A stretch of 64,000 nt of DNA, taken from Alphaproteobacteria bacterium (GTDB lineage Bacteria > Pseudomonadota > Alphaproteobacteria > Bin95). Of this stretch, positions 7,723 through 63,226 are shown one piece after another (position 1 is the first letter of the stretch; each line of letters starts with the position of its first letter). The notes below the pieces were generated by a model. That model saw nothing but the letters and a program-made list of their open reading frames with translations, was not told the DNA's origin and ran no database searches. The translations under genes and the position numbers were made by a program. The stretch lies in contig CBDBCB010000021.1 in NCBI GenBank assembly GCA_965202745.1, forward strand, positions 326,295 to 390,294, written 5' to 3'.

Positions 7723-7816
7723 CGCCTGCCGCAGTTGGTGCCTGGCCGGTTTCCCCCTTGGTTCGGTGGCCAAATGGGGCGATCATGAATACCCGCACAA
7801 TCGGGCGTTATGTTGG

Positions 7817-7868
7817 TGGTTCGATGCAAACTGATGGGCACCATCCATTTGCATCGAACCACTAGGAG
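7817..7868 (+). promoter_or_regulatory. 14-bp-stem hairpin (TGGTTCGATGCAAA ... TTTGCATCGAACCA) whose 3' arm abuts the ggt Shine-Dalgarno sequence (AGGAGG)
   Basis: Read directly. The loop is 18 nt. A related 17-mer (ATGTTGGTGGTTCGATG) recurs at 35085-35101. Confidence 0.5.
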
Positions 7869-7871
7869 GTA

Positions 7872-9563: not shown

Positions 9564-9566
9564 TCA

Positions 9567-10631: not shown

Positions 10632-10660
10632 GGCGCGCAGGTGATCCCCTGCCGTTGGTA

Positions 10661-11911: not shown

Positions 11912-11974
11912 TGGAAGCCTCTGGGTTAGGGTGGTCGCTCAGAGCATAGACCGTTTGCCAAGAGAGACCAGCCC

Positions 11975-13447
11975 ATGCGACTCGCCATCGCCGGATTTGC
12001 GCTTGAAAGCGTTACCTTTCTGCCGGAACAGACGGATATTCCGGACTTTGAGCGCGGTGCGCAGAGAGGCGCGGCCCTGGTCAGAGTGCGAACGGGCACC
12101 AATACCTCGGTCGGCGGCTTCCTGAAGGTCTGTGCAGCGGAGGGGATTGAGCCGGTCGGGCTGGTCGATGCCGGCGCGGGCGCGGCTGCCTCTGCCAGTG
12201 AGGCGGCGTTCTACCAATATGTGGGAGAGATTGTGGCGGGCCTCGCCGCTGTCAAAGACACGGTGGACGGCCTGCTGCTGCATCTGCATGGCGCGCTGGC
12301 GACTCCGTCGCGGCGGAACGCGGATGCCCAGGTATTGCAGGCGATCCGGGTGGAGGTTGGCCCGGATTTTCCTATCGCCGTGGCCTTTGATCTGCACGGC
12401 AATATCGGGCGGGATGTGGTGGACGCAGCGACGGTGCTGGCTGGCTATCACTACTCACCACATACCGACATGGCGGTGACAGGGGAGCGGGCGGCGCGGA
12501 TGCTGGTCGCGCACATGAAGCAGGGCAGGGGGCTTGCCATGGGCTACGGACGGCCTGGCATTATCCTGCCCAGCATCTTTTCCGCTACGTGTTTGGAGCC
12601 GCTGGCAACCCTGATGCAGCACGCCCGCGACCTGGAGATGCATACGCCGGGCGTTCTTGATATCTCGATTTTCTGCGGGTTCGCTTACGCCGATGTGCCG
12701 GACTGCGGCATGAGCGTGGTGGTGGTGACCGATGGTGACGAGGGCCTGGCGCAGCGCATGGCAGAGCGGCTGGCAGGACTGGCCGCGGACTGGCGGGCGG
12801 TGCTGTTCCGGCGGGAATTGGTGCTGGATGTGGCGGCGGGGGTCGACCAGGCGTTGGCGATGGCCAAGACAGCAGACAAGCCGGTCTGCCTGCTGGATCA
12901 CGCCGACCGCCTGAACGATTCGACCTATACGCTGCGGGAGCTGCTGGCGCGGGGCAGCGGGGCGAAGGTCTTTGCACCGTTCATGTTCGACCCCGAAAGT
13001 GCGGCGGCCTGCGTTGAAGCCGGCACGGGGGCGACAGTGCTATTGCAGCTTTGCGGCAAGTCCTCGCCACAGGCAGGCGGGCCGTTGGCCGTGGCGGCGA
13101 AGGTTGTATGGGCTGGCGAAAAGGTAATTACGGTGACCGGGCCGCTCTACACTGGCGTAGAATTCAAGCTCGGCAACAGCGCGGTGCTGGACCTGGGCGG
13201 CGGGGTGATGGTCTCGCTGATTTCCATCCAATGGAGCGCCATCGACCGGGATTGCTTCGATCAGTTCGGTCTGGTGCCGGAGGATTTCGATGTGATCCTG
13301 CTGCGGAGCAAGACCCACTTCCGGCATGTCTACACGCCGATGTGCGAGGATATTCTGATTGTCGATACACCAGACTGGGGCCCGGCGGATGTCACCACCT
13401 TGCCCTATGAGTATGCAGACCGGGGCAGTTTTCCGTTTGTGCTGTAG
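11975..13447 (+). CDS. M81-family metallopeptidase (microcystinase MlrC-like; DUF1485 + MlrC_C architecture)
   Basis: 490 aa. N-terminus MRLAIAGFALESVTFLPE.... Overall match to the MlrC family from memory of the family pattern. Confidence 0.8.
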   Translation: MRLAIAGFALESVTFLPEQTDIPDFERGAQRGAALVRVRTGTNTSVGGFLKVCAAEGIEPVGLVDAGAGAAASASEAAFYQYVGEIVAGLAAVKDTVDGLLLHLHGALATPSRRNADAQVLQAIRVEVGPDFPIAVAFDLHGNIGRDVVDAATVLAGYHYSPHTDMAVTGERAARMLVAHMKQGRGLAMGYGRPGIILPSIFSATCLEPLATLMQHARDLEMHTPGVLDISIFCGFAYADVPDCGMSVVVVTDGDEGLAQRMAERLAGLAADWRAVLFRRELVLDVAAGVDQALAMAKTADKPVCLLDHADRLNDSTYTLRELLARGSGAKVFAPFMFDPESAAACVEAGTGATVLLQLCGKSSPQAGGPLAVAAKVVWAGEKVITVTGPLYTGVEFKLGNSAVLDLGGGVMVSLISIQWSAIDRDCFDQFGLVPEDFDVILLRSKTHFRHVYTPMCEDILIVDTPDWGPADVTTLPYEYADRGSFPFVL

Positions 13448-13483
13448 CCCTGCCGTATTGAACAACGCGCCTGAAAGGGAGGC

Positions 13484-14227
13484 TTGCCCATGACCTATTC
13501 CATTGTCGCCCGTGACCCGGAAACCGGCCATTTGGGGATCGCGGTGGCTAGCCGCTACTTCGCGGTCGGGGCGATTGTGCCCTATGTCCGCGGCGGTATA
13601 GGTGCGATTGCCTCACAGGCGTTTCCCAATCCCACTTTTGGAACGGACGGGCTGTGGTTGATGGAAACCAGGATGGCGCCCGAAAATATCGTAACCGCCT
13701 TCCTTGAGAGGGATAACGGCCATAATAACCGCCAGTTTCATATGATTGACGCCGCGGGCCGGGGCGCGGCTTTCACGGGCTTGAACTGTGTGGACTGGGC
13801 CGGGCACGTGAGCGCCGATGGTGTGTCGGTTGCAGGCAATATGCTGGAAGGCCCCCTGGTGGTGGAAGACACCCTTCGCGCCTACCAGGCAGCGATGGAC
13901 ACGCCCTTCATAGAACGCCTGCTGATTGCGATGCAGGCGGGCGAGGATGCGGGCGGCGACAAGCGGGGCAAACAGTCGGCGGCGCTGGTGGTCTATCGCG
14001 ACCAGAACTATCCGTGGCTGAACATCCGCTCCGATGATCATGGCGACCCGCTGTCCGAATTGCGCCGTCTCTATGCGGTGGCCCAGGAACGCTACCTGCC
14101 CATGGCAGAGATCATGCCGACACGCGAGAACCCGCACGGGCTCACCGACGAGAAACAGCTGACAGTTGGTGATTTTCCTGAGGGGCGGCATATCATGGCG
14201 TTGTTCCCGCGCCGCAATTCTCGCTGA
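13484..14227 (+). CDS. DUF1028-family (Ntn-hydrolase-fold) protein, 3' end interrupted by IS256 copy B
   Basis: MTYSIVARDPETGHLGIAVASRYFAVGA.... The last 26 codons, including the stop, are IS-derived. The native C-terminus (RSGIDAEIARLEEARLARGEASASFMRNKA*) resumes in frame at 15531. Confidence 0.7.
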   Translation: MPMTYSIVARDPETGHLGIAVASRYFAVGAIVPYVRGGIGAIASQAFPNPTFGTDGLWLMETRMAPENIVTAFLERDNGHNNRQFHMIDAAGRGAAFTGLNCVDWAGHVSADGVSVAGNMLEGPLVVEDTLRAYQAAMDTPFIERLLIAMQAGEDAGGDKRGKQSAALVVYRDQNYPWLNIRSDDHGDPLSELRRLYAVAQERYLPMAEIMPTRENPHGLTDEKQLTVGDFPEGRHIMALFPRRNSR

Positions 14228-15522
14228 GAAAAGGCTATGCCTCATGACGAGAGATACCATCACCGCGTTGCCCCATCCCAAGGGATTTTCCGCCGATCCG
14301 CTGACGGATTTGATCCGTTCCGGGGCGCGGCAGTTGATCGAGCAAGCGCTTGAAGCTGAGTGGAGCGCATGGCTTGCGCCATTTTCCAATGAGACGACGC
14401 CCGAGGGGCCCGCGCGGGTCGTTCGTCACGCTCACCTGCCAGAACGAGAGGGAATGACCGGGATTGGCCCAGTGCCCGTGAAAGGGCCACGCGGGCGGGA
14501 TCGTGATCGGCAGGCTGAGAAGGGTCGGTTCTCTTCTTCGATCCTGCCACCGTATCTGCGCAAGGCGAAGTCCGTCGAGGACTTGCTGCCCTGGCTTTCC
14601 CTCAACGGCATTTCCACGGGCGATTTTCAGGCGGCCTTGGCCGCGCTGCTCGGGCCGAACGCGGCGGGCCTGTCGTCCCCCACCATCTCGCGGCTGAAGT
14701 CCGATTGGTGGGAGGAGTACGACCGCTGGCAGAAGCGCGATCTCAGCGCCCGGCGCATCGTCTATGTCTGGGCGGATGGCGTCTATTTCCAGCCAAGGAT
14801 GGAAGAAAAGCAATGTGTTCTGGTGCTGATCGGCGCGGATGAATGGGGCCGAAAGGAGATACTGGGGCTGATCGACGGCTATCGCGAAAGGACCCAAAGC
14901 TGGCGCGCGCTCCTGCTCGACCTCAAGCGGCGCGGCCTCAATCACGCGCCCGATCTCGCGGTAGGCGACGGTGCACTGGGCTTCTGGGCCGCCCTTCGCG
15001 CGGTCTTCGGCGCGACCGCAGAACAGCGCTGCTGGTTCCATAAAACCGGCAATGGGCTGAAGGCAATGCCCCAATCGGTGCAAGCGAAAGCCAAAGGCCC
15101 CCTGCACGACATCTGGCAGGCAGAGACGAAGGCCGAAGCCATGGCGGCCTGCGATTTCTTCATCGAGACCTACGGCGTGAAAGACGAACAAGCGGTAGCC
15201 AAATGGATCAAAGACCGTGACGTGCTGCTGGCCTTCTATGATTTCCCGGCAGAACAGTGGAAACACATCAGAACCACCCATCCCATCGAAAGCGCCTTCG
15301 CGACGGTGCGCCACCGGACAGGTAAAACCAAAGGCTGTCTGAGCCGAAAGACCGCCCTCGCCATGGCGGTCAGGCTCCTGATGTCAGCGCAGGGCAAATG
15401 GCGAAAGCGCGACGGCGCAAATCGCATGCCTGGGATAATCCAGGGCATTGCATTCATCGACGGGATCAAACAAATGCAAAACGCCGCCTGATCAAGCCGT
15501 CACCAACTTTCGCCATAGCTCA
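14150..15522 (+). mobile_element. IS256-family insertion sequence copy B, flanked by an 8-bp target-site duplication TCACCGAC (14142-14149 and 15523-15530)
   Basis: Same ends as copy A. A perfect 8-bp direct repeat sits on both sides, as expected for IS256-family transposition. Confidence 0.9.
14166..15491 (+). CDS. IS256-family transposase
   Basis: 441-aa ORF, near-identical to the ORF at 3955-5280. Confidence 0.9.
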   Translation: MVIFLRGGISWRCSRAAILAEKRLCLMTRDTITALPHPKGFSADPLTDLIRSGARQLIEQALEAEWSAWLAPFSNETTPEGPARVVRHAHLPEREGMTGIGPVPVKGPRGRDRDRQAEKGRFSSSILPPYLRKAKSVEDLLPWLSLNGISTGDFQAALAALLGPNAAGLSSPTISRLKSDWWEEYDRWQKRDLSARRIVYVWADGVYFQPRMEEKQCVLVLIGADEWGRKEILGLIDGYRERTQSWRALLLDLKRRGLNHAPDLAVGDGALGFWAALRAVFGATAEQRCWFHKTGNGLKAMPQSVQAKAKGPLHDIWQAETKAEAMAACDFFIETYGVKDEQAVAKWIKDRDVLLAFYDFPAEQWKHIRTTHPIESAFATVRHRTGKTKGCLSRKTALAMAVRLLMSAQGKWRKRDGANRMPGIIQGIAFIDGIKQMQNAA

Positions 15523-15740
15523 TCACCGACCGCAGTGGCATTGACGCTGAGATCGCCCGGTTGGAGGAGGCACGGTTGGCCCGGGGGGAGGCGAGTGCTT
15601 CGTTCATGCGGAACAAGGCCTAACCGGGAGGCAAACCGGCCGCCGATGGCTTAATTTTGGTAGAATTACGACCATTTATGATTGTGGAATGGTTCGGGCG
15701 CGAACAGAGCATCAGTTGGTTAATGAATGGAGTGCCTGAC

Positions 15741-15850
15741 GCTAAACAGGCGGTCATCATTGGCTAAACTTAGCCTAAACCGCACCTAAACCGTTTGGTG
15801 CCTAAAAAGTTTAGTTTTGCGCATAAAAGTTTAGATAAGTTTATGCGTTT
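15741..15850. repeat. Block A: five 11-bp-phased NCTAAAC hexamers followed by a conserved core (AAACCGCACCTAAACCGTTTG ... TTAGTTTTGCGCATAAAAGTTTAG) and a 9-bp palindrome GCGCATAAA-N12-TTTATGCG
   Basis: Read directly. Homologous, in inverted orientation, to 24781-24920. Confidence 0.8.
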
Positions 15851-15937
15851 TCAAAAACGCGGAGTGGCGTCAACGCGCCGCCAAACCAGTAACTATTTGG
15901 TAACCTTCGTTAATGGTGAGGGTCTCCTGGCGAGGTC

Positions 15938-16896
15938 TCAGTTCTGAAGAAGCGTGTGGACGGGCTGGTCGCCGGGGCCGTGCAGAATGTCCTGTATCAG
16001 CCTGGCGGTCCGGTCTTTTCCCAGCCGGGCGCGGCGTTGGCCATTCTCACCAAAGGCGGCTACCGGCTGGATTTGGATGAGTTGCTCCAGCGCAGTGATG
16101 GCCGATCCCTGCAGCACATCGCCTTCGTAGGCGGCGGGGGTCAGGTCGCCTCGCGCAAAGGCATAGGCCAGCGTGTAGCTGAGCGAGAACTGGGCCATGA
16201 TCAGGCTGACTGGCGCGCGGTTGCCGCAATAGGTAACGGCTTCGGGGTAGATCTCCAGCGTTACGGCTGAAATGGCGGCAGTGGATGCTGGACAGCATCT
16301 GGCAGAGCGCCGCTGACGCCGCTGAGGCCAAAGCATCGCCGTCGGCGTGGGCGTACAGGCGGCGACCAGCCCCCAGGTGCCGTCTCGTGAGTGCCGGGCT
16401 TGGCGCGGAACAGGGCGCCCATGCGCCCGCCGAACTCGAAACCGGCCGAGACGGCGTCGAGCAGCGAAGCCAGGGTCGCGCCGGTGCGCATTGCAGCGCC
16501 GATGGCTGCCGCCACCGCGTGCAGGCCCGGTCTGCCATGGGCGAACGCCAGGCCCTCGCAGGCCTCGTCAGCGCAGGCGGCGAGCGCGACCACATAGGCG
16601 GCCTCCGCTGGGCCGAGTGTCGTGTCGGTGCCTAGGAAACCCGGCTGACCACTGGGCTGGCCCAGGTATTGCAGGTCGACCTTGCGCAGTCCGGCGACCG
16701 CGCAGGCCAGGGTATCCAGCAGCAATCGCCGCGCCGCGTGATCGGCGGCTGTGTCCAGTGGAGTCTGCTCTACCCACTGACCCAATGCGCGCATGCGGGT
16801 GTCGTAGAGGTCTGCCGCTTGATCGGTTGGACTGGTCATGATGATCCGAAGCGCCCGATTTCTTGGGCCTGAACGCTTCCGCACCGCGGTACGCAA
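15938..16896 (-). pseudogene. MmgE/PrpD-family protein, frameshifted and shortened
   Basis: Two overlapping ORFs in different frames (16261-16896 for the N-terminal part, 15938-16336 for the C-terminal part). The combined length is far short of the ~450 aa usual for this family. Confidence 0.7.
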
Positions 16897-16944
16897 CGGT
16901 GCGGAAGCTGCCCTTTGAGCCGCCGGATGAGGGCGGCTGTGGCT

Positions 16945-17712
16945 CTATTTGATGCCGTCTTTGTACGCATTCAGTTGCGCCTGCGCACCGGCAACCATGC
17001 AAGCCGTATCAGAGGTCAGCATGACCATGTCAAAGCCGCGCTTGATAGCGCCGGCGGCAAAGGCACCGCTGCCGCAATGCATAACCGCCTTGATGCCATG
17101 CTTGTGCGCGGTGGCCAGGATCTTGTCGCAGGTCTCTATATGCAGCGGGTCCGGGTTGTCGCCGCGCGGCGCAAGGCCCAGGGCATAGGACAGATCGGCT
17201 GGGCCGATATAGACCGCGTCAACGCCAGGGGTGGCGCAAATCTCTTCTAGGTTCTCAAGGCCTTCCTTGGTTTCGATCATCACCATCATGATGATCTCGT
17301 TATTGGCGGCTTCCTGATAGCCGGGTCCACCATATTGCGCCGCGCGGAAGGGGCCGGAGGAGCGCACGCCATCGGGCGGATAGCGGCAGGCATCAACGGC
17401 GGCTGCAGCTTCCTCGGCATTGTTCACCAGCGGCACGATGACGCCGTAGGCACCGATGTCCAGCGCCCGCATGATGGAGGCTTTGTCATTCCATTTGACA
17501 CGCACAAACGGCGCGGTGTCGGTTTGCGAGATCGCCTGCAGCAGGGGCAGAACGTGGCTCATTTCGTTGGTGCCGTGCTGCAGGTCAACGCACAGGGAAT
17601 CGAAGCCCTGACGCGCCATCATCTCGGCGGTAAAGCTGTGGGAAATGGAGATCCAACCCATGGTCGCCGGTTTGCCGTCGCGCCACATCTGCTTAATTTT
17701 GTTAGGCCGCAT
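16945..17712 (-). CDS. HpcH/HpaI-family aldolase (2-keto-3-deoxy-acid aldolase / citrate-lyase-beta-like)
   Basis: 255-aa TIM-barrel aldolase pattern (GVIVPLVNNAEEA, MIETKEGLENLEEI, AVYIGPADLS). Confidence 0.85.
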   Translation of the reverse strand: MRPNKIKQMWRDGKPATMGWISISHSFTAEMMARQGFDSLCVDLQHGTNEMSHVLPLLQAISQTDTAPFVRVKWNDKASIMRALDIGAYGVIVPLVNNAEEAAAAVDACRYPPDGVRSSGPFRAAQYGGPGYQEAANNEIIMMVMIETKEGLENLEEICATPGVDAVYIGPADLSYALGLAPRGDNPDPLHIETCDKILATAHKHGIKAVMHCGSGAFAAGAIKRGFDMVMLTSDTACMVAGAQAQLNAYKDGIK

Positions 17713-17882
17713 GGTATTACCTTCAATGGTTTATGTAGGGGATAGCGGCTCCGTTTGCGCTCTGGCAGGCAAACGGACCGCCGATCCGGCAAGATGGGTA
17801 ACTTGGCTTTTTATGGCGAAGCGGTCGAGCTCCTATCGACATGGGGCCTGACGATCGGGACCAGAGGCAGAGATACCGTAGC

Positions 17883-20030
17883 TTAGCCCTTTGCGCCGTA
17901 GCGCATCCGCAAGGCGTTTGCCGTTACCAGAATGGACGATGTCGACATGGCGATTGCTGCCAGCATCGGCGTCACGAATCCGGCAACTGCCAACGGCACG
18001 CTGACGGTGTTGTAGAAGGCGGCCAGGCCAAAATTCTCCAATACCCTCCGCTTTGCTGCCCTGGCGACGTACAGGGCCTCCGAAACGGCGTTCAGCGAGT
18101 CGCCCTGGAACACCATGTCGGCGGCATTCTGCGAAATGTCGGCAGCGGTTGCAGGAGACATGGAGGCATGAGCGGCGGCTAGCGCCGGGGCGTCGTTCAG
18201 GCCATCGCCTACCATCAGCACACGCTGCCCGCCGGCTTGCAGGGCTTCCAGGCGGACGATCTTGTCCTTTGGGCTTAGACCGGCCTCTGCGTCAGTAATG
18301 CCGAGTTTGGCCGCCACCGCTTCGACCGGGCCAGCCTCATCACCGGATAGCAGCGTCACTTGGCAGCCGTGCCGCTTGATCCAGGCAATGGCTTCGGCAG
18401 CATCTGGCCGCAGGCTGTCGTTGAAGTGGAACGCCGTTGGAGTCATGCCTGGGCCGGACAACCAGACGGTGGTTGCAGTTTGGGCTTCGGTCGTCTCAAC
18501 GCCACACCACTTGGCGGAGCCGAGCTTAAAGCCATCCGCCATAGTACCGGAGCCGGGCACTTCCTCCGCGCTGTCAGCAATGGCAGGGGCTGCGCCGAAA
18601 CGCTCCTTCGCTGCCAGCACAATGGCTTGGGAGAGCGGATGACGGTTGGCACCGGCGATGCTTGCAGCCAGGCGCAGAGTGTCATCGGCGATCCCGTCAG
18701 CGCCTTCTACCCTGGGCTTGCCGATTGTCAGTGTGCCGGTCTTGTCGAACACCACATGATTGATCTCTGCAAAACGTTCCAGGGCCGCCCCGCTCTTCAT
18801 CAGCACCCCGTTGCGCAGCAGGCGTCTGGCAGCAACAACCTGCACGGCGGGCACGGCCAAGCCCAGCGCGCAGGGGCAGGTGATGATAAGGACCGCGATG
18901 GCCGTCAGCAGTGATTGCTCGACCCCGGCCCCGGCAAGCATCCAGCCTATAAATGTCAGCGCTCCCAGACCGTGGACCAGCGGCGCATAGATCTTGGCTG
19001 CCCGGTCCGCAAGGCGCACGAAGCGATCACGGCCCTGCTGGGCATTCTCCATCAGCCGGGCGATGTCGGCCAGCAGGCTGTCGTCCGCCATGGCGATGGC
19101 GTTCAGCTCTATCGCGGAGCCGAGGTTGATGCAGCCGACATAGACGGTGTCGCCCGCGTCCACGGTGCGTGGCAGAGACTCGCCAGTGATCAGGCTGGTG
19201 TCCAGCTGGGCGCTCCGCCCAAGAATCCGGCCATCCACGGGCACTTTCTCGCCGCTGGCCACCAGGACCCGGTCGCCGACCGCGACCTCATTGGTGGAGA
19301 CACGGCGGTGGGCGCCGGAATCGGGATCGACGATAGTGGCCTCACTGGCGGCAAAGGCCAGCAGGTTTCCTGCGGCCTCTCGCGCTTTGCCCCGCATGCG
19401 GGCGTCCAGAAAGCGGCCAATCAGCAGGAAGAGCAGCAGCGAAACCGCGGCGTCGAAATAGACCTCGTCCGCATTGCTCCAGGTTTGCCAAACGCTCATG
19501 CCGGTCGCCAGCAGCACCGCCAGGCTGATCGGCACGTCCATGTTGACCCGCCAGACCTTCAGCGCGGTCCAGGCGGAGCGGAAGAAGGGGCGTCCGGCAT
19601 AGGTGACGGCGGGCAAGGCGATGGCAGCCGCCAGCCAGTGGAACAGCGAGCGCGTTTCGGCATCCATGTCCTGGACGAGCCCGGCCCACACCGCCACCAT
19701 CAACAGCATGATGTTCGCGGCTGCAAAGCCTGCCACACCAAGGCATTTCAGAAGAAAGCGCTGGTCCTGATCGGCTGCATTCAGGCTGCCATCAAAGCGG
19801 GCTGCCTCAAATCCGGCGTTGGCCAGCGCGCCGACTACTTGCGGCAGGTCAATTGTTCTGGGATCAAAGCGCACCCGGACGCGCTTGGTCGTCAGGTTCG
19901 CCCGTGCTTCCGCTATACCCTTTGTGTCGGCAAGTGCCTGCTCGATCCCCCGCACACACCCGCCGCAATGCATGTTGGAGACGGAAAGAACCGCCTCATC
20001 AAATCCATCCAGAGTTAGCGATTTGGCCAT
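17883..20030 (-). CDS. heavy-metal (Cu+)-translocating P1B-type ATPase
   Basis: N-terminal HMA domain MHCGGC, TM CPC motif (ITCPCALGLAVP), the phosphorylation site DKTGTLT, and the hinge VGDGLNDAPAL. Confidence 0.9.
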   Translation of the reverse strand: MAKSLTLDGFDEAVLSVSNMHCGGCVRGIEQALADTKGIAEARANLTTKRVRVRFDPRTIDLPQVVGALANAGFEAARFDGSLNAADQDQRFLLKCLGVAGFAAANIMLLMVAVWAGLVQDMDAETRSLFHWLAAAIALPAVTYAGRPFFRSAWTALKVWRVNMDVPISLAVLLATGMSVWQTWSNADEVYFDAAVSLLLFLLIGRFLDARMRGKAREAAGNLLAFAASEATIVDPDSGAHRRVSTNEVAVGDRVLVASGEKVPVDGRILGRSAQLDTSLITGESLPRTVDAGDTVYVGCINLGSAIELNAIAMADDSLLADIARLMENAQQGRDRFVRLADRAAKIYAPLVHGLGALTFIGWMLAGAGVEQSLLTAIAVLIITCPCALGLAVPAVQVVAARRLLRNGVLMKSGAALERFAEINHVVFDKTGTLTIGKPRVEGADGIADDTLRLAASIAGANRHPLSQAIVLAAKERFGAAPAIADSAEEVPGSGTMADGFKLGSAKWCGVETTEAQTATTVWLSGPGMTPTAFHFNDSLRPDAAEAIAWIKRHGCQVTLLSGDEAGPVEAVAAKLGITDAEAGLSPKDKIVRLEALQAGGQRVLMVGDGLNDAPALAAAHASMSPATAADISQNAADMVFQGDSLNAVSEALYVARAAKRRVLENFGLAAFYNTVSVPLAVAGFVTPMLAAIAMSTSSILVTANALRMRYGAKG

Positions 20031-20224
20031 TGTCGCGTCATCACCTCAACGGGGCCGGGCGCTGGATACATCCATCGTCTTTGCCGACGGAAGCGTGCCG
20101 TCGCAGACCGTACTGCTACACATAGTATACATATAGATATAGGTTCCCGCGCTGACCGTTAAAGGAAAGTGTGCAGGGTTCACGATATGCCGCTGCTTCA
20201 GCCGCGCTAATTTTCTGGATTCGG

Positions 20225-20300
20225 TGGTGCCGCAGAGAGGACTCGAACCTCCGACCCACGCATTACGAATGCGTTGCTCTACCGACTGAGCTACTGCGGC
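20225..20300 (-). tRNA. tRNA-Thr (anticodon CGT), CCA encoded
   Basis: Cloverleaf folded by eye: acceptor GCCGCAG/CTGCGGC, D stem GCTC/GAGC, anticodon stem ACGCA/TGCGT with loop TTCGTAA, T stem GGAGG/CCTCT with loop TTCGAGT, and a 3' ACCA. Confidence 0.9.
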
Positions 20301-20488
20301 GAACCATCAGCGTAACATAGTCAGAACGTTTGGCCGTTGCAATGGCCTCCGAGCGGTAAGGAACCGGGTGTGAGTGTCGCGACCTATGCGGTTTTTGCGG
20401 GGCTGCGTCCGGGAAATTTCTGATGTTGCTCCGCAATAAAATCCCATCTCTTGCACAAGGCCACTTCGGCCAATCAGGAGATGTAACA

Positions 20489-20704
20489 ATGACCACAGCA
20501 ACACTTCATACCCACGCACCGGTCCGGACGAATGCGGTTCTAGACTACCTGCACCGCTTGCAGGATGCCTACACCGCCTGGCGGAATGAGCAGAGCGCCC
20601 GCGCGGCGCTGAGCGCGCTGTCGGACTACGAACTGAAGGATATCGGTATCACTCGCTCGGATATCGACTATGCCTCGCGCAAATTCGGCGCGCAAACCTT
20701 CTAA
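20489..20704 (+). CDS. DUF1127-domain small protein
   Basis: C-terminal LSALSDYELKDIGITRSDIDYASRKF matches the DUF1127 signature. AGGAG lies 9 bp upstream of the ATG. Confidence 0.7.
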   Translation: MTTATLHTHAPVRTNAVLDYLHRLQDAYTAWRNEQSARAALSALSDYELKDIGITRSDIDYASRKFGAQTF

Positions 20705-20883
20705 CTTCAGCCAGTCGGTTCGATGCAATCCGGTGGATGCCTTCGTTGGCGACTGCCGGATCGCCGGCCCGGGGCAAGCCTTGCATTTTCAGCGGGGCAG
20801 GCTTGCGAACATTCGGGATGTTGCGGTGCAATAATTGTGTATCCCTGCGCCGGTCCAATTATCCGTCCAGTGGAAGAGTTCCT

Positions 20884-21096
20884 ATGACCTCGATGACAAT
20901 CAATGGCTCGTTCCTGCGGCCCACCGGCATTTTCCATGATGTGGTTGGCAAGTTGACCATTGCCTGGGCGATTTTGTAGGCCCGCAACACCGCCGACATC
21001 TTCGGCGGCCGCATGTCGGACAACCAGTTGAACGACCTCGGCCTGGTCGCTGTCGAGCGCGCGCCGGTTGCTGTCCAGGCGGTCTGGGCAGCTTAG
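20884..21096 (+). pseudogene. possible second DUF1127-like small ORF containing an in-frame TAG (20977-20979)
   Basis: MTSMTINGSFLRPTGIFHDVVGKLTIAWAIL-TAG-ARNTADIFGGRMSDNQLNDLGLVAVERAPV... The segment after the TAG resembles the DUF1127 LSDxxLxDIG motif. Weak. Confidence 0.3.
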
Positions 21097-21112
21097 GTTA
21101 ACCAGGCGCCGT

Positions 21113-22048
21113 TCAGTCCCGGCCCAGCACCGCCATCAGTTCCCGCCACTCGCGGGAGCTGAGGCCGCTGCCCTTCTGCTTGACTGCTTCGCCTGCCAGC
21201 ATCCGTTGGATGATCGCCAGGCCTGGGGCTGAAAGTTCATAGCCGCCCAGGCGGTAGTCGCTGAAAGCCTTGAAGACGGCAGGTACCCATTTCTCCACGA
21301 CCTTTAGCATCGCGTCCGCATAGACCCGGATCTCGTACTGGGCATGGGCGTCGGCGCGCAAGGCCAGGAAATGCAGCAGGTTGTGTAAATTGCACTTCCA
21401 ATACCACTGGGTATAGGTGGAAAGCGGCAAGATCATCCGCCCCAATTCCCGTGCCAGACCTTGCGCTTCCGGATCGTGACCGGGCGCATTTTCGTCCTCG
21501 TTGAGCATGGTCTCATAGTGATCGAATGCCTGCCCGGCATCGTCTTTCAGCCAACGCAGCGCCCGGGCCGCCTCTTCGCCCTCCAGGATATCCCCGCGTC
21601 CCTGGCGGTTTGCGGTTGACTGGGCGGCCAATTGCTCGGGCGCGGGCACGTAGAACTCGCGGTCCAGCAGGGAGTAGCGGGCCGAGTACTCATTCACATT
21701 GGCGGTGCGGTGCCTGATCCACTGGCGGGCGACGAACATCGGCAGTTTGACGTGGAACTTGATCTCGCACATCTCGAACGGCGTCGTGTGCCGGTGCCGC
21801 AGCAGATAGCGGATCAGGCCCTCGTCCTCCCGCACTTGCTTGGTGCCCGCGCCATAGGAAACACGGGCTGCCTGCACGATGGCGGCATCGTCGCCCATAT
21901 AATCGATCACCCGGATGAAGCCATGGTCGAGCACAGGCATCGCTTCGAACAGAATCTCTTCGACCGCCGCGACGGTCGGGCGGCGGGTTTGGGCGCTGGC
22001 GGTGCGGGCGGCTGCAAGCTCGTGGTTTTGCTCGTCGGTCAGCGCCAT
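21113..22048 (-). CDS. thyX: FAD-dependent thymidylate synthase ThyX
   Basis: ThyX signature [15 protein letters not shown] (RHRxxxxxxxS), 311 aa. Confidence 0.9.
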
Positions 22049-22094
22049 GGCAGGCTTCCTCTTTTAATTTCGCCAGTTCGTCCCTATATAGGGA

Positions 22095-22445
22095 TTGTCG
22101 GGTAGCACCCGACTATGGCGATAAACGGTGCGTGGAATAATCGTTGCGGACCCGGGGGCAGTACCCGGCGCCTCCACCAACTACCCCAGCTTCTTTGCGG
22201 AGGTTTAGAGTACACGGTGTCAGGGGGCGAACTAGGATCGACGTGCGTGGTAAAGATGTATCTTTTGCTCGGCATGGTACCACCGACATCGGGCCAATCT
22301 CTACGTGCGAATGATAATGATTACGCACTCGCTGCTTAAATAAGCAAGCGCGGTTCGGGAGGGCACCGGGCAACAGAAGCCCTCCCACTATCGCTTTCCA
22401 TCTGGCTGCGCTAAAAGAGCGGAACACCATTTACTGTACCTGCTA
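22095..22445 (+). ncRNA. ssrA: two-piece (circularly permuted) tmRNA gene ssrA
   Basis: The acceptor piece ends GCGCCTCCACCA at 22179. The coding piece starts GGGGGCGAACTAGGATCGACG at 22224, with G3-U70 pairing to the acceptor 3' strand. The tag reading frame at 22307-22339 encodes ANDNDYALAA followed by TAA. The CCA end lies upstream of the tag ORF, so the gene is permuted. The outer boundaries are approximate. Confidence 0.8.
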
Positions 22446-22459
22446 GAGACACAGCGCCC

Positions 22460-22969
22460 ATGGTCGGCCCGAACGAAGAACACAGCAGAGATACCTACGA
22501 CCGGATGGTAGAGCAGGCGCTGAAAGGCGTGATGCGGGATGCCATTGCGGAAGTTGCCGAGAAAGGGTTTCTGGGAGAGCAGCACTTCTATATCTCCTTC
22601 CGGACAGTCTATCCTGGCGTAATGATTGCCGATGTCTTGCGCGCGCAATATCAGGACCAGATGACGATTGTGCTGCAGCACCAGTTTTACAATCTGGGTG
22701 TCTCAGACGACCACTTTGAGGTGACGCTGAGCTTCAACAAAAAGCTGGAGCGGCTGTCGATTCCCTTCGACGCGATCGTCAGTTTCGCCGACCCGGCGGT
22801 GGGATTCGGCCTGCAATTCAGCTCTGCCCTGGGCGATGCAGATGTGGACGGGCTGACCGGCGACAATAGCGACCAGGACCCGGAGGACGATCCGGAAGGG
22901 GACGATCCCGCCCCGCCGGAAGGCCCGGGCGAGGTGATCAGCCTGGACGCTTTCCGCAAAAAAACCTGA
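22460..22969 (+). CDS. sspB: ClpXP specificity-enhancing adaptor SspB (alphaproteobacterial type)
   Basis: 169 aa. HFYISFRTVYPGVMIADVLRAQYQDQMTIVLQHQFYNLGV matches the SspB-alpha fold pattern, with an acidic C-terminal tail. Confidence 0.8.
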   Translation: MVGPNEEHSRDTYDRMVEQALKGVMRDAIAEVAEKGFLGEQHFYISFRTVYPGVMIADVLRAQYQDQMTIVLQHQFYNLGVSDDHFEVTLSFNKKLERLSIPFDAIVSFADPAVGFGLQFSSALGDADVDGLTGDNSDQDPEDDPEGDDPAPPEGPGEVISLDAFRKKT

Positions 22970-23013
22970 TACAAGCACCCCACGCATAACTTTTCCGAAT
23001 GGAGTGCCGTCTG

Positions 23014-24621
23014 ATGGCTGATTTCGCTTACAAACCCATGTTCGACGCCCACCACGACGACACGCCCTGGCGCAAGCTAGAAGGCGACTATGTGGAGGTC
23101 GATACCTTCCGTGGTGAGGAAGTCGTGGTCATCAAGCCCGGCGCGCTCGCCGACCTGACGCGCGAGGCGTTCAAGGACATCAGCTTCTTCCTGCGCTCCG
23201 GCCATCTGGCCCAGTTGCGCGCCATCCTCGATGACCCGGAGGCCAGCGGCAACGACCGCTTCGTGGCCCTCGACATGCTGAAGAACGCCAACATTGCGGC
23301 GGGCGGCGTGCTGCCCATGTGCCAGGACACCGGCACTGCTATCATCATGGCCAAGAAGGGCGACCGCGTCTGGACCAGCGGCACGGACGAAGAAGAACTC
23401 TCCAGCGGCGTTTTCCGCACCTACGACCAGGAGAATCTGCGCTTCAGCCAGCTCTCGCCCATCTCCATGTTCGAGGAGAAGAACACCGGCACCAACCTGC
23501 CAGTGCAGATGGACATGCTGCAGAAGCCCGGCAGCGAGTACGAGTTCCTGTTCATGGCCAAGGGCGGCGGCTCGGCCAACAAGGCGTTCCTCTACCAGGC
23601 GACGCCCTCGCAGTTGCACCCGGAGCGTCTGGTGCAGTTCCTGGACGAGAATATCCGCACCCTCGGCACCGCGGCCTGCCCGCCCTATCATCTGGCCATC
23701 GTCATCGGCGGCACCTCGGCTGAGATGAACCTGAAGACGGTGAAGCTGGCGTCTGCCCGCTACTACGACCATCTGCCGACCACCGGCGGCTTGCATGGTC
23801 AGGCAATCCGCGATGTGGAGATGGAGCAGCAGATCCTGCACATGACCCAGCAGATGGGCATCGGTGCGCAGTTCGGCGGCAAGTATTTCTGCCACGACAT
23901 CCGCGTCATCCGCCTGCCGCGGCACGGCGCATCGCTCCCCATCGGCCTGGGCGTTTCGTGCTCCGCCGACCGTCAGGCCCTGGGCAAGATCACCCGCGAC
24001 GGCGTCTTCGTCGAGCAGCTGGAGATGAACCCGGCGCAGTTCCTGCCGGAGCCTGCGGCCCAGGAACTGGGTGGCGAGGTGGTTCACATCGACCTGAACC
24101 AGCCCATGCCGAAGATCCTGGAGCAGTTGACGGCCCACCCGATCAAGACCCGCCTCGCGCTCACCGGCCCGATGATCGTCGCCCGCGATCTGGCCCACGC
24201 CCGCATCCAGCGGGAGATGGTCGAGGGCAAGCCGATGCCCGACTACTTCAAGAACCACCCGATCTACTATGCCGGCCCGGCCAAGACCCCCAAGGGCTAT
24301 ACCTCCGGCTCCTTCGGCCCGACCACGGCCGGCCGCATGGACAGCTTCGTGGACGAGTTCCAGGGCAAGGGCGGCAGCATGGTCATGCTAGCCAAGGGCA
24401 ACCGCTCGCGCCAGGTTGTGGACGCCTGCGCTAAACACCACGGCTTCTACCTCGGCTCCATTGGCGGCTCGGCGGCACGTCTGGCCCAGGACCACATCCG
24501 CAAGGTCGAATGCCTGGACTTCGAAGAGTTCGGCATGGAAGCCGTCTGGCGGATCGAGGTCGAGAACTTCCCGGCCTTCATCGTGACCGACGACAAGGGC
24601 AGCGACTTCTTCGGCACCTAA
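23014..24621 (+). CDS. fumA: class I (Fe-S) fumarate hydratase
   Basis: Near-colinear match to E. coli FumA/FumB ([44 protein letters not shown]). An in-frame ATG at 22999 is an alternative start. Confidence 0.9.
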
Positions 24622-24780
24622 GCGGCGAGGGGGCCTTACCGCTAAGCATGCCTTTCCCGGGCGCATCCCCGGCTCCGGGCCGGGGGCAGGCCCGGAACCT
24701 CTGTCCCCCCAGGGATCTCTAGCCGGGTCTGGCCTCCATCCGCTCCCAGGCCCCTCATTGCTGAACCACTACCTCGTGAC

Positions 24781-24920
24781 GCTTCCGAGTTTTACCTAAA
24801 CAAAACTAAACTTTTATGCGCAAAACTAAGCCGTTTCGGAGGCAAACGGTTTAGGTGCGGTTTATCGAAAGCGTATCGCCTGTTTATTCCCCGTTTACCG
24901 GCGGTTTACTGCCAGTTTAT
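24781..24920. repeat. Block B: inverted homologue of block A, with 11-bp-phased GTTTA(Y) repeats (tgtttattccc / cgtttaccggc / ggtttactgcc / agtttattccc) leading into CAAACGGTTTAGGTGCGGTTT
   Basis: Read directly. About 80% identical to 15770-15850 over ~75 bp on the opposite strand. Confidence 0.8.
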
Positions 24921-25198
24921 TCCCACAGAAGGCAGCCAGGCTCCATCTCACCCCGCCCGCATTCCCGGAGCGTGGCTCGCAGAGCCAGGCATCCGGGACC
25001 TGTTCACCCGCCCGCAATGGTCCGGGCTCCACCCGCCGCACAGAAACAGGTCCCGGAAAGCGCAGGGCACCTCCGGGAATTCGAGCATTGTTACTTTCGT
25101 ACAAATAAGAACATAATAGCAACATTCTCATATTTCAACCCCTAGATCCCCGAATGACGCGACGGCGTCAGCCCGGGGGCCTAAGAGCGATCCTCGGA

Positions 25199-25345: not shown

Positions 25346-25992
25346 ATGACCGATCCCGCCACCCTCATCGCCTATCTGCTCACCGCGGGAGCCATCGTCG
25401 TCTCTCCCGGACCTGATACCGCGCTGGTGGTCCGCCACACGCTCACCAGCGGCCTGCCCGCTGGGCTCGGCACGGTGGCGGGCACGAACCTGGGTCTTGC
25501 TCTCCATACGCTCGCGACTGTCCTCGGCCTCTCGCTCCTGATCGCTGCCAGCAAGACCGCGCTCGCCGTCATCGCCATTGCCGGCGCTGCCTACCTCGTC
25601 TTCCTGGGCTGGCAGGCATTCCGCGCCAGCGTGATCTCCTTCGGCAACGTGACGGCTTCGGTAGGCGCACCCTATGTCTCTGCCAGACGCGCGCTCCGCG
25701 ATGGCCTGATCTCCAACCTGTTCAATCCGAAGGTGATCCTGCTTTTTCTCTCGCTGATGCCCCAGTTCATCCAGCCGGCGGCAGAGCATGGCAGCGTGCC
25801 GCGGCAACTCGCCATTATGGGCGTTATCCTGATCGCCATGAGCCTTGCCTGGCAGATATACCCCTGGCGCTTGCGGCGGAGAGCGTGCGCGGCTGGCTGG
25901 CCCGGCCATCGGTGCAGCGCGGCATCAATTGGGTCACCGGTGCGATCCTGTTGGGCTTTGCCGCGCTCATGCTTTACGATCACACTCTCTGA
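25346..25992 (+). pseudogene. LysE/RhtB-family amino-acid exporter with a single frameshift near 25860 (C4 run)
   Basis: The N-terminal ~170 aa are typical of the family. The canonical C-terminus (LALAAESVRGWLARPSVQRGINWVTGAILLGFAALMLYD) continues in another frame. Confidence 0.75.
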
Positions 25993-26021
25993 GTTTCCGC
26001 TTAGCCGAAAGGCCCTTCCTC

Positions 26022-27188
26022 ATGCTGCGCTCCGATGGCCGCATCCTAACCACCCACGCGGGCAGCCTGCCCCGTCCGCTCGACCTCACCCGCCTCTATG
26101 CGGCGCGCGCGGGCGGCGATTCGGTGGACGAAGCCAAGATCGTGGAGATGGGGGAGGCCGCAACCCGCGCCAATGTCCGCCAGCAGATCGCCGCGGGCCT
26201 CGACTTCGTCAACAATGGCGAGCAGCTGCGTGAGGCCTTCTTCCTCTACCTGCAACGGCGGCTGAGCGGCTTCGGTCCTGGTGGCTATCGCGGCGTCTTC
26301 AAGGACATCAAGAACCACCCCGACTTCGCCCCCATCCGCGAGGCGATTTTCGACGGCAAGCCCGTGATCTCCAACATGACCCCGCCAAAGGTTGTGGGTG
26401 AACTGAAGTACCTGAACCCCGACGCCGTCGCCGCCGAATGCCGCCAGTTCCAGCGCGTGTTGGAGGGCATAGAGGGGCAGAAGCCGGCCGGCACCTTCTT
26501 CACCGCGCCGTCCCCCGGCATCGTCGCGACTGCCATCCCGAACGAGTATTACGACAGCTTCGACGCCTATCTGCGGGCCATCACCGATGCCGTCGCCATT
26601 GAATACCGCACCATCATCGAGCACGGCTTCGACCTTCAGATCGACGCACCCGACCTCGCGTTGGAGGGCCACGGCCACTTCGCCGACCGCCCGCGCAGTG
26701 AGTTCCTGGCCTTTGTCGAGCAGGTTATCGACGAAATCCGCCGGGTGACCGCCGACCTGCCGCAGGACCGCATCCGCCTGCACGCCTGTTGGGGCAATTA
26801 TGAGGGGCCGCACGACGCCGACGTGCCGATTGCCGAAATGTTGCCGATACTGACAAAGGCCCATGCCGGTTCCCTGCTGCTGCCCATGGGCAACCCGCGG
26901 CACCAGCACGAGTACCGGGCTTTCACGCCCGCCAATATCCCCGACAACATGGCCGTGATCGTCGGCTGCATCGATACCACTACCAACTATGTGGAGCACC
27001 CGGAGACCGTGGCAGACCGCCTGGAGCGCGTGGCCCAGACCCTGGGCGATCCCTCCCGTGTGCTGGCGGCCACCGACTGCGGCTTCGACACCTCGGCGGG
27101 TGCCGGCCGTGTCGCGCCCAGCGTGGTGTGGTCCAAGCTCGGCGCCATGGTCGAAGGCGCCAAGATCGCCAGCGAGCGGCTGTTCTAA
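26022..27188 (+). CDS. cobalamin-independent methionine synthase MetE C-terminal-domain family protein (short methionine synthase II type)
   Basis: 389 aa, Zn-binding region pattern (LHACWGNYEG...CIDTT...DCGF). It lies 29 bp after the LysE-like gene. Confidence 0.75.
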   Translation: MLRSDGRILTTHAGSLPRPLDLTRLYAARAGGDSVDEAKIVEMGEAATRANVRQQIAAGLDFVNNGEQLREAFFLYLQRRLSGFGPGGYRGVFKDIKNHPDFAPIREAIFDGKPVISNMTPPKVVGELKYLNPDAVAAECRQFQRVLEGIEGQKPAGTFFTAPSPGIVATAIPNEYYDSFDAYLRAITDAVAIEYRTIIEHGFDLQIDAPDLALEGHGHFADRPRSEFLAFVEQVIDEIRRVTADLPQDRIRLHACWGNYEGPHDADVPIAEMLPILTKAHAGSLLLPMGNPRHQHEYRAFTPANIPDNMAVIVGCIDTTTNYVEHPETVADRLERVAQTLGDPSRVLAATDCGFDTSAGAGRVAPSVVWSKLGAMVEGAKIASERLF

Positions 27189-37482: not shown

Positions 37483-37618
37483 TCATCATCTGATTGGCCT
37501 AACGGCCAACGCGCCTCGGAACGTGCTTGCTATTTGAGGGCATCACGCCACAAGGCGCGGTGCCAAGGGGCCGACTTTTGCGCCGCCCCAGTGGCAGGTT
37601 TTTACGCCGCCGTTGACA

Positions 37619-56530: not shown

Positions 56531-56839
56531 CGGGATGGAACAGATAGAAGGCCAGGCCGGTTGGCAAAGCCGGCAGCCAAATGGCCAGTTGCTCGCCCCA
56601 CCCCATGACGCCAGCGGCCACACTTGGCATCATCCGGACAACATGCTGTTTGCGGTCGTCAAATTCGGCTCATCCGCAGTGAGTGGCCAGCCGCTGGAGA
56701 CCAGCATGCCCATGTTCAACGACATACTGGGCGACCAGGAGATCGCCGCAGTGCTGGCCTATATAAAAAGCACCTGGCCAACGGAAATTCGCGCAAAGCA
56801 TGACGCCTTGAATGAGCGCATGCCCCAAACGGGAAAATG
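56531..56839 (+). pseudogene. C-terminal fragment of a c-type cytochrome gene, cut by IS481 copy 2
   Basis: Ends ...MFNDILGDQEIAAVLAYIKSTWP..., the typical C-terminus of a class I cytochrome c. The reading frame continues into the IS end. Confidence 0.55.
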
Positions 56840-63220: not shown

Positions 63221-63226
63221 CTTAGG

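Follow-up and report, generated by a model that had tools for sequence, protein, structure and literature searches.

Helically phased TAAAC arrays in a small, dispersed family of intergenic DNA elements from uncultured marine alphaproteobacteria

The 64-kb stretch of alphaproteobacterial DNA analysed here (the window) contains two homologous blocks, A and B, which stand in opposite orientation 9 kb apart. Do they delimit a unit, and what kind of site are they? The earlier note described them as an inverted pair with hexamer arrays at exact 11-bp spacing bracketing the 9-kb segment between them. The inverted homology was confirmed: a repeat search returned an ungapped 104-nt inverted repeat (arms 15740-15843 and 24797-24900) that is 74% complementary, and blastn aligned a 59-nt core of A and B at 88% identity. 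Two exact stretches, TAAACCGCACCTAAACCGTTTG and TTAGTTTTGCGCATAAAAGTTTAG, are common to both blocks. The helix phasing of the arrays also proved real, as TAAAC-N6-TAAAC has six exact matches in the 64 kb, all within the blocks, against 0.00 expected from 100 shuffles. Even with one mismatch allowed, no further pair was found outside the blocks in the 64-kb window, so the motif is confined to these composite elements. Their parts are as follows.

Block A, 15741-15844, plus strand: homologous to block B
Block A long arm, 15741-15791, plus strand: five G(A/C)TAAAC-N4 units at exactly 11 bp, unit 2 degenerate (GTCATC)
Block A centre, 15792-15808, plus strand: 17-bp spacer
Block A short arm, 15809-15844, plus strand: four units exactly 10 bp apart, inverted relative to the long arm
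Block B, 24796-24921, minus strand: homologous to block A
Block B long arm, 24849-24921, minus strand: seven units at exactly 11 bp, unit 5 degenerate (TACGC)
Block B centre, 24832-24848, minus strand: 17-bp spacer carrying the dyad CCGTTTGcctccgAAACGG
Block B short arm, 24796-24831, minus strand: four units at 10 bp

The TAAAC cores of block A start at 15743, 15765, 15776 and 15787, with the degenerate TCATC at 15754; in block B, where the long arm lies on the minus strand, GTTTA is read at 24849, 24860, 24882, 24893, 24904 and 24915, and the degenerate unit is at 24871. The second array in each block, four GTTTAG-type units on the opposite strand at exactly 10 bp, had been overlooked. It reads GTTTAG tttt GCGCAT aaaa GTTTAG ataa GTTTAT in block A (starts 15809, 15819, 15829 and 15839) and GCTTAG tttt GCGCAT aaaa GTTTAG tttt GTTTAG in block B. 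The innermost TAAAC and GTTTAG of block A form an imperfect dyad, 22 bp from centre to centre. The centres of the two blocks are unlike (GGTGCCT in A, GCCTCCG in B).

Blocks A and B are copies of a small, hitherto undescribed family of intergenic DNA elements of about 105-135 bp. Seven further copies (L144, L159, L164, L175, L199, L180 and L188) were found in related uncultured marine alphaproteobacteria; L199 is a strain variant of L175 at the same locus, and L188, from the closest relative, is orthologous to block A. The nine copies are spread over seven unrelated intergenic loci in several genomes. All of them follow one polar design, in which two arrays converge: a long arm of 5-7 G(A/C)TAAAC units with a period of exactly 11 bp, a centre, and an inverted short arm of four GTTTAG units (two in one copy), always in a 10-bp register. 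Six copies have a centre of 16-17 bp; in two others it is longer by one helical turn (27-28 bp). In the unit table, which covers eight copies (L199 left out), the long arm counts 45 units, none of them out of the 11-bp register, and TAAAC is intact in 42. Conservation is strict at TAAAC (1.6-2.0 bits, as against at most 0.8 bits in the spacers), that of the inner two units appearing inflated since seven of the nine copies were ascertained with an exact 18-mer. Loss of phasing, which the earlier note would have counted against its view, was seen in none of the homologous copies, and this persistence supports a protein-binding array as the general class. The copies are about 75-88% alike and homologous as whole blocks between loci, spacers included, while their central spacers vary from copy to copy. 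When the family profile was run with nhmmer, the 64-kb window yielded just its two copies, and related loci totalling about 210 kb (partly redundant) added none to those already known.

The view of the blocks as ends of a mobile or invertible segment of 9 kb, one of them (block A) containing a dif-like Xer site, drew on their inverted orientation, their 9-kb distance and the tRNA gene between them. The interval is a mosaic whose parts meet at 20031-20224, and the bracket arises from a rearrangement at this junction that is private to this genome, as judged by comparison with its relatives. In the closest relative, the block A region (L188) runs on from fixI into fixH-fixG-ccoPQON, and that copy has no partner within 10 kb. 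The tRNA-Thr/thyX/fumA region of this relative (L181) has different left neighbours. The orientation of thyX-tmRNA-sspB-fumA against the right flank is unchanged in relatives that carry no blocks, and the segment with block B differs among close relatives, the synteny breaking there. Occurrence at unrelated sites had been named beforehand as evidence against a bracket, and blocks were found at seven unrelated loci in several genomes. The gene content had been listed broadly correctly, except that the "Cu-ATPase" is fixI of a fixGHIS cluster. As for dif, the palindrome GCGCATAAA-N12-TTTATGCG is present in block A and missing from block B and from L188, and its resemblance to a XerC arm is accidental: within the 10-bp arm GCGCAT stands as a degenerate second unit, replaced by GCTTAT in L188 and by GTTTAG in L159, L164 and L180. 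With up to seven mismatches allowed, E. coli dif has no match in the window, nor does a XerD arm or CATAA-N6-TTATG with one or two. A paired boundary of a 9-kb unit is contradicted by these data and scarcely credible.

Other known classes of sites were compared with the element. No dif/XerCD site, which would be expected once per chromosome and would have an 11-bp XerC arm, a 6-bp centre and a conserved TTATGTTAAAT-like XerD arm, occurs in the window. Iteron, integrase-arm, transposase and ParB-type sites had been named as typical bearers of such arrays; none of the copies has a rep, par, integrase or transposase gene linked to it. A plasmid or phage replication origin of the iteron type was rejected on the missing rep gene and on the lack of any match in collections of 72,556 plasmids and 50,697 phages; viral contigs gave no match either. 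A type II/Ib partition centromere (parC-like) or StbA site was set aside because the arms are inverted, not direct, and no par or stb genes adjoin them. The window copies have no tyrosine recombinase beside them, their centres differ and the interval is not an island, which excludes attP, attL or attR. With two copies in 64 kb and none new in the related loci, a high-copy repeat of the REP/BIME type does not fit. A known structured RNA was rejected as well, because Rfam gave no match to the blocks even at E values up to 5, the single-strand folding z-scores are inconsistent (+0.36 to -3.7) and the arm spacers are not complementary. The element holds no conserved ORF, and an 11-nt period is incompatible with coding. 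What survives of the earlier interpretation is the class of a phased, putatively protein-binding array; the bracket and the dif site do not.

Our best reading is that the element is a helically phased docking site for a putative cooperative DNA-binding protein. That each block is a copy of a low-copy, dispersed, polar cis-acting element of an uncultured marine alphaproteobacterial clade, serving as such a platform, has in our judgement about an even chance of being right. A sequence-specific protein would recognize TAAAC as its core within the wider motif G(A/C)TAAAC and would bind cooperatively head to tail, one protomer per helical turn on each arm: at the 5-7 sites of the long arm (11 bp) and the four sites of the short arm (10 bp, with A/T-only spacers). 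Two filaments would then face each other across a dyad held in helical register, 22 or 32-33 bp from centre to centre, and the predicted intrinsic curvature would help the DNA wrap into a single asymmetric nucleoprotein complex. Such head-to-tail binding would be analogous to that of winged-helix response regulators, excisionases, integrase arm domains and centromere binders of the ParR/StbA type. At gene ends, the complex might act as an architectural element or a barrier and not as an ordinary promoter operator. No gene for a binding protein lies next to any copy, which counts against a docking site. Two periods, 11 and 10 bp, would be unusual for one protein, and only nine copies have been seen.

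The curvature prediction which the earlier note had called for ranks blocks A and B within the top 0.1-0.4% of the window (an approximate wedge-model calculation). It would also suit a purely structural element, with phased A-tracts that are intrinsically bent and have no specific binding partner, and so would repeat periods of 10 and 11 bp. The invariant T before and C after AAA and the G bias two bases upstream are needless for curvature, and argue for base-specific reading rather than A-tract curvature alone. Besides, the A3 tract is short, and the T and A runs of the short arm alternate every 5 bp, which would partly cancel the bend. We regard mere bending as very improbable.

The geometry of the long arm raises the possibility of an oversized operator or enhancer of a response regulator of the OmpR/PhoB/CtrA type, with an adjacent gene or a small RNA not yet annotated as its target. 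A 7-bp site with a 4-bp spacer and an 11-bp period corresponds to tandem winged-helix geometry, the unit reading xGTTTAxC on the opposite strand. Proteins of the OmpR/PhoB family typically bind direct tandem repeats (PMC11328730), and ArcA sites consist of 2-5 direct repeats at 11 bp (PMC3798270). The likeness extends to the putative head-to-tail binding and to the core itself, since GTTTA/TAAAC resembles the half-sites of PhoP (box (T/G)GTTTA-N5) and CtrA (TTAA-N7-TTAA), and the pho box has 7+4 bp. Placement at about -35 to -100 of a promoter, as expected of such an operator, fits only L175/L199, where the short arm ends about 90 nt before the crotonase start codon, and L180, where it ends about 35 nt before that of methylmalonyl-CoA mutase. 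About 190 bp away from block B, a promoter-like motif is conserved. However, four distinct loci (block A/L188, L159, L144 and block B) lie between convergent gene 3' ends; both ends face the element at block A/L188, L159 and L144 (there beyond an IS200 insertion), and the short arm of block B faces the 3' end of fumA, so that an operator position is absent at the first three and on the fumA side of block B. No σ70-like promoter was found around block A. The neighbouring genes (DUF1028, PrpD, fumA, LysE, crotonase, MFS, MCM, SMP-30 and similar ones) share no function. Unlike OmpR/PhoB sites, the element has up to 7+4 sites, an opposed 10-bp arm and homology over its whole length, including the spacers, which members of a regulon would not have, and no simple two-site box stands at any promoter in the 64 kb. 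An operator is therefore rather unlikely.

Block A and L188 occupy the same convergent spacer between the DUF1028 and PrpD genes, and the long-arm register is present in both. The block is 79% identical (82/104), as against 39% in the left flank (53/137) and 55% in the right (53/97). Within the block, TAAAC core positions are identical at 41 of 45 sites and spacer positions at 41 of 58 (Fisher p=0.009). The cores were kept while the spacers drifted, which shows selection on the TAAAC cores in place. The DUF1028-PrpD spacer measures about 315-338 bp in the window and L188 and 42 bp in L191 and L193-198. Judging from this comparison, the element here is an insertion relative to the more distant relatives; the edges of the extra DNA, about 290 bp, are not alignable to the 42-bp state (L191, L193).

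This insertion, together with the position of block B in a variable segment where synteny with relatives breaks, means that a mobile origin also fits. The element could be the cis-site of a mobile-element system, either a MITE-like non-autonomous transposon or an att- or res-like recombination site served in trans by an integrase or transposase whose gene lies elsewhere in the genome. As a transposon it would have a left and a right end with multiple subterminal transposase sites. The scatter over unrelated loci and the asymmetric inverted arms, comparable to Tn7/Mu-type ends or to the P and P' arms of attP, agree with this. Furthermore, an unrelated gut element (L150) has three CCTAAACC repeats at 11 bp about 175 bp past its integrase, which carries an arm-DNA-binding domain, so such arrays can act as arm-type sites. 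The integrase gave no tblastn match in the window or the alphaproteobacterial loci, and neither an integrase nor a transposase accompanies any copy. Judged as a MITE, the element has an empty-site-like counterpart in the 42-bp spacer of L191 and L193, and its copies are about 75-88% alike, but the block edges show neither a target-site duplication nor terminal inverted repeats. A dead insertion would not be expected to keep its cores under selection amid change-saturated flanks, as one orthologous copy does; the differing central spacers make site-specific recombination from copy to copy unlikely, and the plasmid, phage and viral collections gave no match. We consider a mobile cis-site a doubtful alternative, yet the first to be kept in mind beside the docking platform.

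A docking platform of this kind has partial counterparts among known systems. ParR and StbA sites span 100-150 bp, with repeats bound cooperatively into a wrapped filament; R1 parC has 5+5 repeats of 11 bp, and the R388 stbDRs have 2x5 repeats of 9 bp with 2-bp spacers. The element similarly has two clusters of about five short repeats, one per helical turn. In ParR/StbA sites, however, all repeats are direct and flank a promoter beside par or stb genes on plasmids, whereas the element has inverted arms with different periods and lies on the chromosome at several loci with no such adjacent genes. Tyrosine integrases bind arm-type arrays such as P'1-P'3 of lambda. Tandem repeats at 10-11 bp, asymmetric opposed arms and a central dyad recall these integrase and excisionase arrays (lambda; the gut element), but no integrase or excisionase is near, core-type and arm-type motifs are identical, the centres differ and vary by a whole helical turn, and one copy is conserved in place between species. 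The low-affinity DnaA arrays of E. coli oriC are two opposed arrays of 9-mers with 2-bp spacing. They share with the element two opposed 11-bp-period arrays, which in oriC guide filament growth from each side, yet the element shows no similarity to DnaA boxes, does not lie at an origin and is found at several loci per genome. Like REP/BIME, Correia, Bru-RS and RIME repeats, it is non-coding, intergenic, often at gene 3' ends, present in several copies and hit by an IS (the L144 region was struck by IS200). Those families consist of short palindromes or MITEs, number tens to hundreds of copies and have no helically phased arrays, while the density of the element is low and phasing is its defining feature.

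Helically phased arrays mark cooperative nucleoprotein machines, among them origins, centromeres, recombination sites and response-regulator enhancers, and nearly all known arrays adjoin the gene of their reader protein. The element is unlike those: it is scattered over chromosomal intergenic spacers with no linked gene, is kept by selection between species, and has strict 11/10-bp polarity and a centre in helical register. Finding its reader protein would reveal either a new system by which hosts of this uncultured marine alphaproteobacterial clade organize DNA or set barriers, or a new type of trans-mobilized element. The family profile is a direct handle for locating copies and the putative binder.

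The polarity itself would suit a chromosomal site read in replication or DNA translocation, be it a fork barrier similar to Tus/Ter or RTP or a station orienting a translocase or SMC complex. We know of no such system in this clade and hold this role to be improbable; the change of skew in the window coincides with the rearrangement junction, and the window has no dif site. The evidence is a trend, three loci being ambiguous. Where the loci are better sampled, it is the TAAAC strand that is G-rich at third codon positions regardless of gene orientation (L188 over 16 genes, L199 over 12 and L144 over three), and the two window copies point at each other across a sign change of the third-position G skew.

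The two blocks were found where the earlier note had placed them, as an inverted repeat of 104 nt (arms 15740-15843 and 24797-24900, 74% complementary) with a 59-nt core at 88% identity by blastn. Block A is flanked on both sides by the 3' ends of convergent genes, block B by the 3' end of fumA on one side and the 5' side of lysE on the other. All six matches to TAAAC-N6-TAAAC in the 64-kb window fall within the blocks, none being expected from shuffled sequences, and tolerating one mismatch added no site in the window. TAAAC/GTTTA is scarce there (42 occurrences), the top three 200-bp bins being the blocks, and a family profile search of the window revealed no third copy. The long-arm repeats had already been noticed, whereas the regular short arm, which faces them across the centre, had been missed:

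15741-15791, plus strand: long arm of block A, five units G(A/C)TAAAC-N4 at exactly 11 bp, one degenerate
24921-24849, minus strand: long arm of block B, seven units G(A/C)TAAAC-N4 at exactly 11 bp, one degenerate
Centres of blocks A and B: 17 bp each
15809-15844: short arm of block A, four GTTTAG-type units on the strand opposite the long arm, at exactly 10 bp, with A/T-only spacers
24831-24796: short arm of block B, four GTTTAG-type units on the strand opposite the long arm, at exactly 10 bp, with A/T-only spacers

A metagenome scan with the 18-mer TAAACCGCACCTAAACCG, common to both blocks, yielded five true homologs (loci L144, L159, L164, L175 and L180); the other matches were singletons without further TAAAC or unrelated tandem 11-mers. 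The ortholog of block A was reached by a protein-guided walk from the DUF1028 gene and occupies the same DUF1028-PrpD spacer in the closest relative (L188, L189), and L199 is a strain variant of L175. Scanning genome contigs with TTGCGCATAAAAGTTTAG, a lineage-specific variant, gave 13 chance matches and no homolog, and degenerate four-repeat patterns detected only simple tandem repeats in viral contigs. The element is carried by uncultured alphaproteobacteria from marine or saline settings, with a G+C content of 58-62%. The closest FumA to that of the window in the collections searched was 95.5% identical, and the named neighbours of the L175 crotonase were Minwuia species and "Rhizobiales bacterium NRL2" (78-80%).

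The phasing, to whose preservation in homologous copies the earlier note had attached weight, is kept in all copies at 11 bp in the long arm and 10 bp in the short arm, the latter having only two units in L144. Tabulation of the long-arm units of eight copies (L199 left out) showed 5-7 units per copy, always in the 11-bp register, with an intact TAAAC in 42 of 45. The T-A-A-A-C positions carry 1.6-2.0 bits and the G two bases upstream 0.8 bits; elsewhere the information content is at most 0.7 bits. In six copies the centre spans 16-17 bp; L175 and L180 have 27-28 bp, exactly one helical turn more, which keeps all sites of an element on one helix face. In L144, an IS200/IS605-type element (870-1460), with a Y1-transposase-like ORF at 1010-1426 recognised by eye from the protein sequence, interrupts the short arm precisely behind its first GTTTAG; the remainder of the arm, TTTCGTTTAGGTGG, picks up at the far end of the insertion.

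Phased 11-mers in the actinobacterial lsr2-clpC spacer (L161), in L151 and L153 and at a gut integrase locus were set aside because their contexts are unrelated. The last of these (L139-L179 cluster, about 22 human-gut metagenome contigs) contains the exact 18-mer of the window blocks and is otherwise unrelated. Its three CCTAAACC repeats at 11 bp (e.g. L150:9429-9470) lie about 175 bp past the 3' end of a gene for a tyrosine integrase bearing an Arm-DNA-bind_3 domain and are therefore probably the arm-type sites of that enzyme.

Block A and L188 are orthologous, and the DUF1028 protein next to the block is 84% identical between them. The block itself is identical at 82 of 104 positions, the remaining spacer at 53 of 137 on the left and 53 of 97 on the right, and the adjacent coding ends at 46 of 64 and 37 of 55. 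Within the block, the cores (41/45) are more often identical than the spacers (41/58; Fisher p=0.009). The TAAAC cores have thus been maintained in place by selection as the DNA around them drifted, which is not what a dead insertion would be expected to show. In more distant relatives (L191, L193-198; DUF1028 78-82% identical) the stop-to-stop distance is just 42 bp, so that either the common ancestor of L188 and the window acquired the block, together with the extra DNA (about 290 bp) that contains it, or the others lost it.

The best-supported reading, to which we give about an even chance, is that the element serves as a docking site on which a sequence-specific DNA-binding protein assembles cooperatively. 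Each helical turn would hold one protomer, and two opposed filaments of unlike pitch would come together, on curved DNA, at a phased dyad, the sites being kept in place by selection. This geometry is akin to that of tandem winged-helix binding (pho, PhoP, CtrA and ArcA boxes), of integrase arm or excisionase arrays and of ParR/StbA centromeres; none of the tests run revealed membership in a known family. The Irr ICE box, LacI-type AAACGTTT cores and DnaA boxes, the patterns of which served for comparison, were rejected for misfits in orientation or spacing. The same applied to CenR, whose sites follow TGA-N8-TGA (PMC11328730). Both blocks rank among the top 0.1-0.4% of the window in curvature predicted with the dinucleotide parameters of a wedge model, at approximate values of 45-51 degrees per 31 bp where the median is 14. 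The curvature is real in the model and leaves the invariant T and C and the upstream G unexplained. A hairpin substrate or an RNA seems unlikely, since the single-strand folding z-scores were inconsistent (+0.36 to -3.7) and the arm spacers are mutually non-complementary, and single-strand hairpins of the attC, REP or IS200-like type were rejected on the same grounds.

The main rival, a trans-mobilised element or a recombination site, is favoured by the presence/absence pattern and by the position of block B in a variable segment, but the conservation in place and the lack of an associated recombinase make it rather improbable. None of the copies is linked to a rep, par, integrase, excisionase or transposase gene, and a P4-type integrase used as a tblastn query found no match in the element loci. 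The element matched nothing in the plasmid collection, the phage collection or the viral contigs, nor in Rfam even with E up to 5. A conserved small ORF or sRNA was looked for in and beside the blocks and none was found.

The genes flanking the copies are unrelated in function (DUF1028/PrpD, fumA/LysE, secreted beta-propeller protein/SMP-30, Rieske oxygenase, MFS/crotonase, methylmalonyl-CoA mutase and dienelactone hydrolase/LolD). Relative to the element these genes point in varying directions, and 8 of the 12 flanks are gene 3' ends. The occurrence of copies in convergent spacers and the absence of simple boxes elsewhere argue against an ordinary regulon operator, which we regard as less probable still than mobilisation in trans.

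Close relatives without block B have a different phased array after fumA, equivalent to window 24780-24920 and the sole phased array in those loci (L014:11857-11990, L015:2916-3050, L182:5885-6015). In it, three ATCTACA/ATCGACA units at 10 bp, whose spacers alternate between TTC and AAA, are followed across about 50 bp of A/T-rich DNA by an inverted TGTAGA(T/C) and then by two further direct units. A lone TGTAGAG stands at the start of L205 where L199 carries the TAAAC element.

The genes around the blocks are arranged as follows:

3925-5300: IS256-family element, inverted and 100% identical to the next
14146-15521: IS256-family element (Mutator-type transposase) splitting the DUF1028 gene, 8-bp target duplication TCACCGAC
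Right of block A, in order: frameshifted PrpD/MmgE (minus), HpcH aldolase (minus), P-type ATPase (minus)
Then, up to block B: tRNA-Thr (minus), two DUF1127 genes, thyX (minus), permuted tmRNA, sspB, fumA
Beyond block B: LysE-type gene

The idea that the blocks bracket a 9-kb segment had to be abandoned, since the interval is a mosaic produced by a rearrangement private to this genome and the bracket is biologically meaningless. Window 5296-20030 is colinear with L188, where fixI runs on into fixH-fixG-ccoPQON, whereas in the window the fix segment ends at the fixI start codon, adjoining tRNA-Thr. Window 20225-24635 is colinear with L181, whose left neighbours are formamidase and an ABC transporter and which comes from the same metagenome sample as L188; the two matches together identify the mosaic. 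The orientation of thyX-tmRNA-sspB-fumA relative to the right flank is unchanged in relatives without the blocks. The IS256-family copy at 3925-5300 forms the left limit of the segment colinear with L188. The rearrangement junction is window 20031-20224, where fixI (17883-20030) abuts the 3' end of tRNA-Thr, fixH, fixG and ccoPQON are absent from this part of the window, and the third-codon-position GC skew flips sign nearby. A genomic island at tRNA-Thr was rejected, the tRNA 3'-end repeat being absent and the DNA on the left being a translocated fix-cluster segment colinear with L188.

The XerC-like arm of dif proposed in block A, GCGCATAA, is a degenerate form of the short arm's second unit, which reads GCTTAT in L188 and GTTTAG in L159, L164 and L180. 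The palindrome GCGCATAAA-N12-TTTATGCG does exist in block A and is private to it; its resemblance to dif did not hold, and the window contains no dif-like sequence. A terminus, suggested by a cumulative GC-skew peak near 18-22 kb, was likewise rejected, as dif is missing from the window, plus-strand genes left of tRNA-Thr in L181 (closest relative) also have negative GC3 skew, and the skew switch coincides with the fixI/tRNA-Thr junction. It survives merely as a low-probability lead. The TAAAC strand is G-rich at third codon positions in both gene orientations in L188 (16 genes), L199 (12 genes) and L144. The skew of L164 is concordant, but its two genes share a strand, and L159, L180 and block B are ambiguous. 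This association is a lead, not a finding; should it hold throughout the genome, the orientation of the element would follow that of replication, and a role connected with forks or translocases would be suggested.

The PrpD/MmgE-family gene (15938-16896) consists of two overlapping frames (132 and 211 aa) and is probably a pseudogene here, because its relatives in L188, L191 and L193 are intact (442-448 aa). Right of block A, window 15889-15914 reads GTAAC-N6-GTAAC-N5-TTAAT, and its ortholog L188:11030-11085 has three CtrA half-site-like TTAACC 21-22 bp apart. Beyond block B, the conserved motif AGAACATAATAGCAACATTCTCATATTTCAAC (25088-25140) is common to L182 and L014 despite different downstream genes, LysE in the window and a YflT-like protein in L182 and L014. 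Both of its strands score as sigma-70-like promoters, with the minus-strand version, TTGAAA-17-TATGTT, directed at block B; the motif is also similar to a GAAC-N7-GAAC SOS box. In the LysE-type ORF (25346-26233, 295 aa) the domain match is limited to residues 17-170. Homology to L014 and L182 places the start of the following conserved gene at 26022, so that it and the ORF overlap; the 3' part of the ORF is probably spurious or read in the wrong frame. Insertion sequences are abundant in the window (3433-3863, 35214-38407, 41715-42923, 55692-56547 and 62357-63225) and include IS21-type (IstA fragments and IstB) and IS3-type elements, another Mutator-family transposase (the second) and one more repeat, which occurs at three sites. 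Pentapeptide-repeat proteins are encoded by two genes, at 60166-60927 and 63196-63963.
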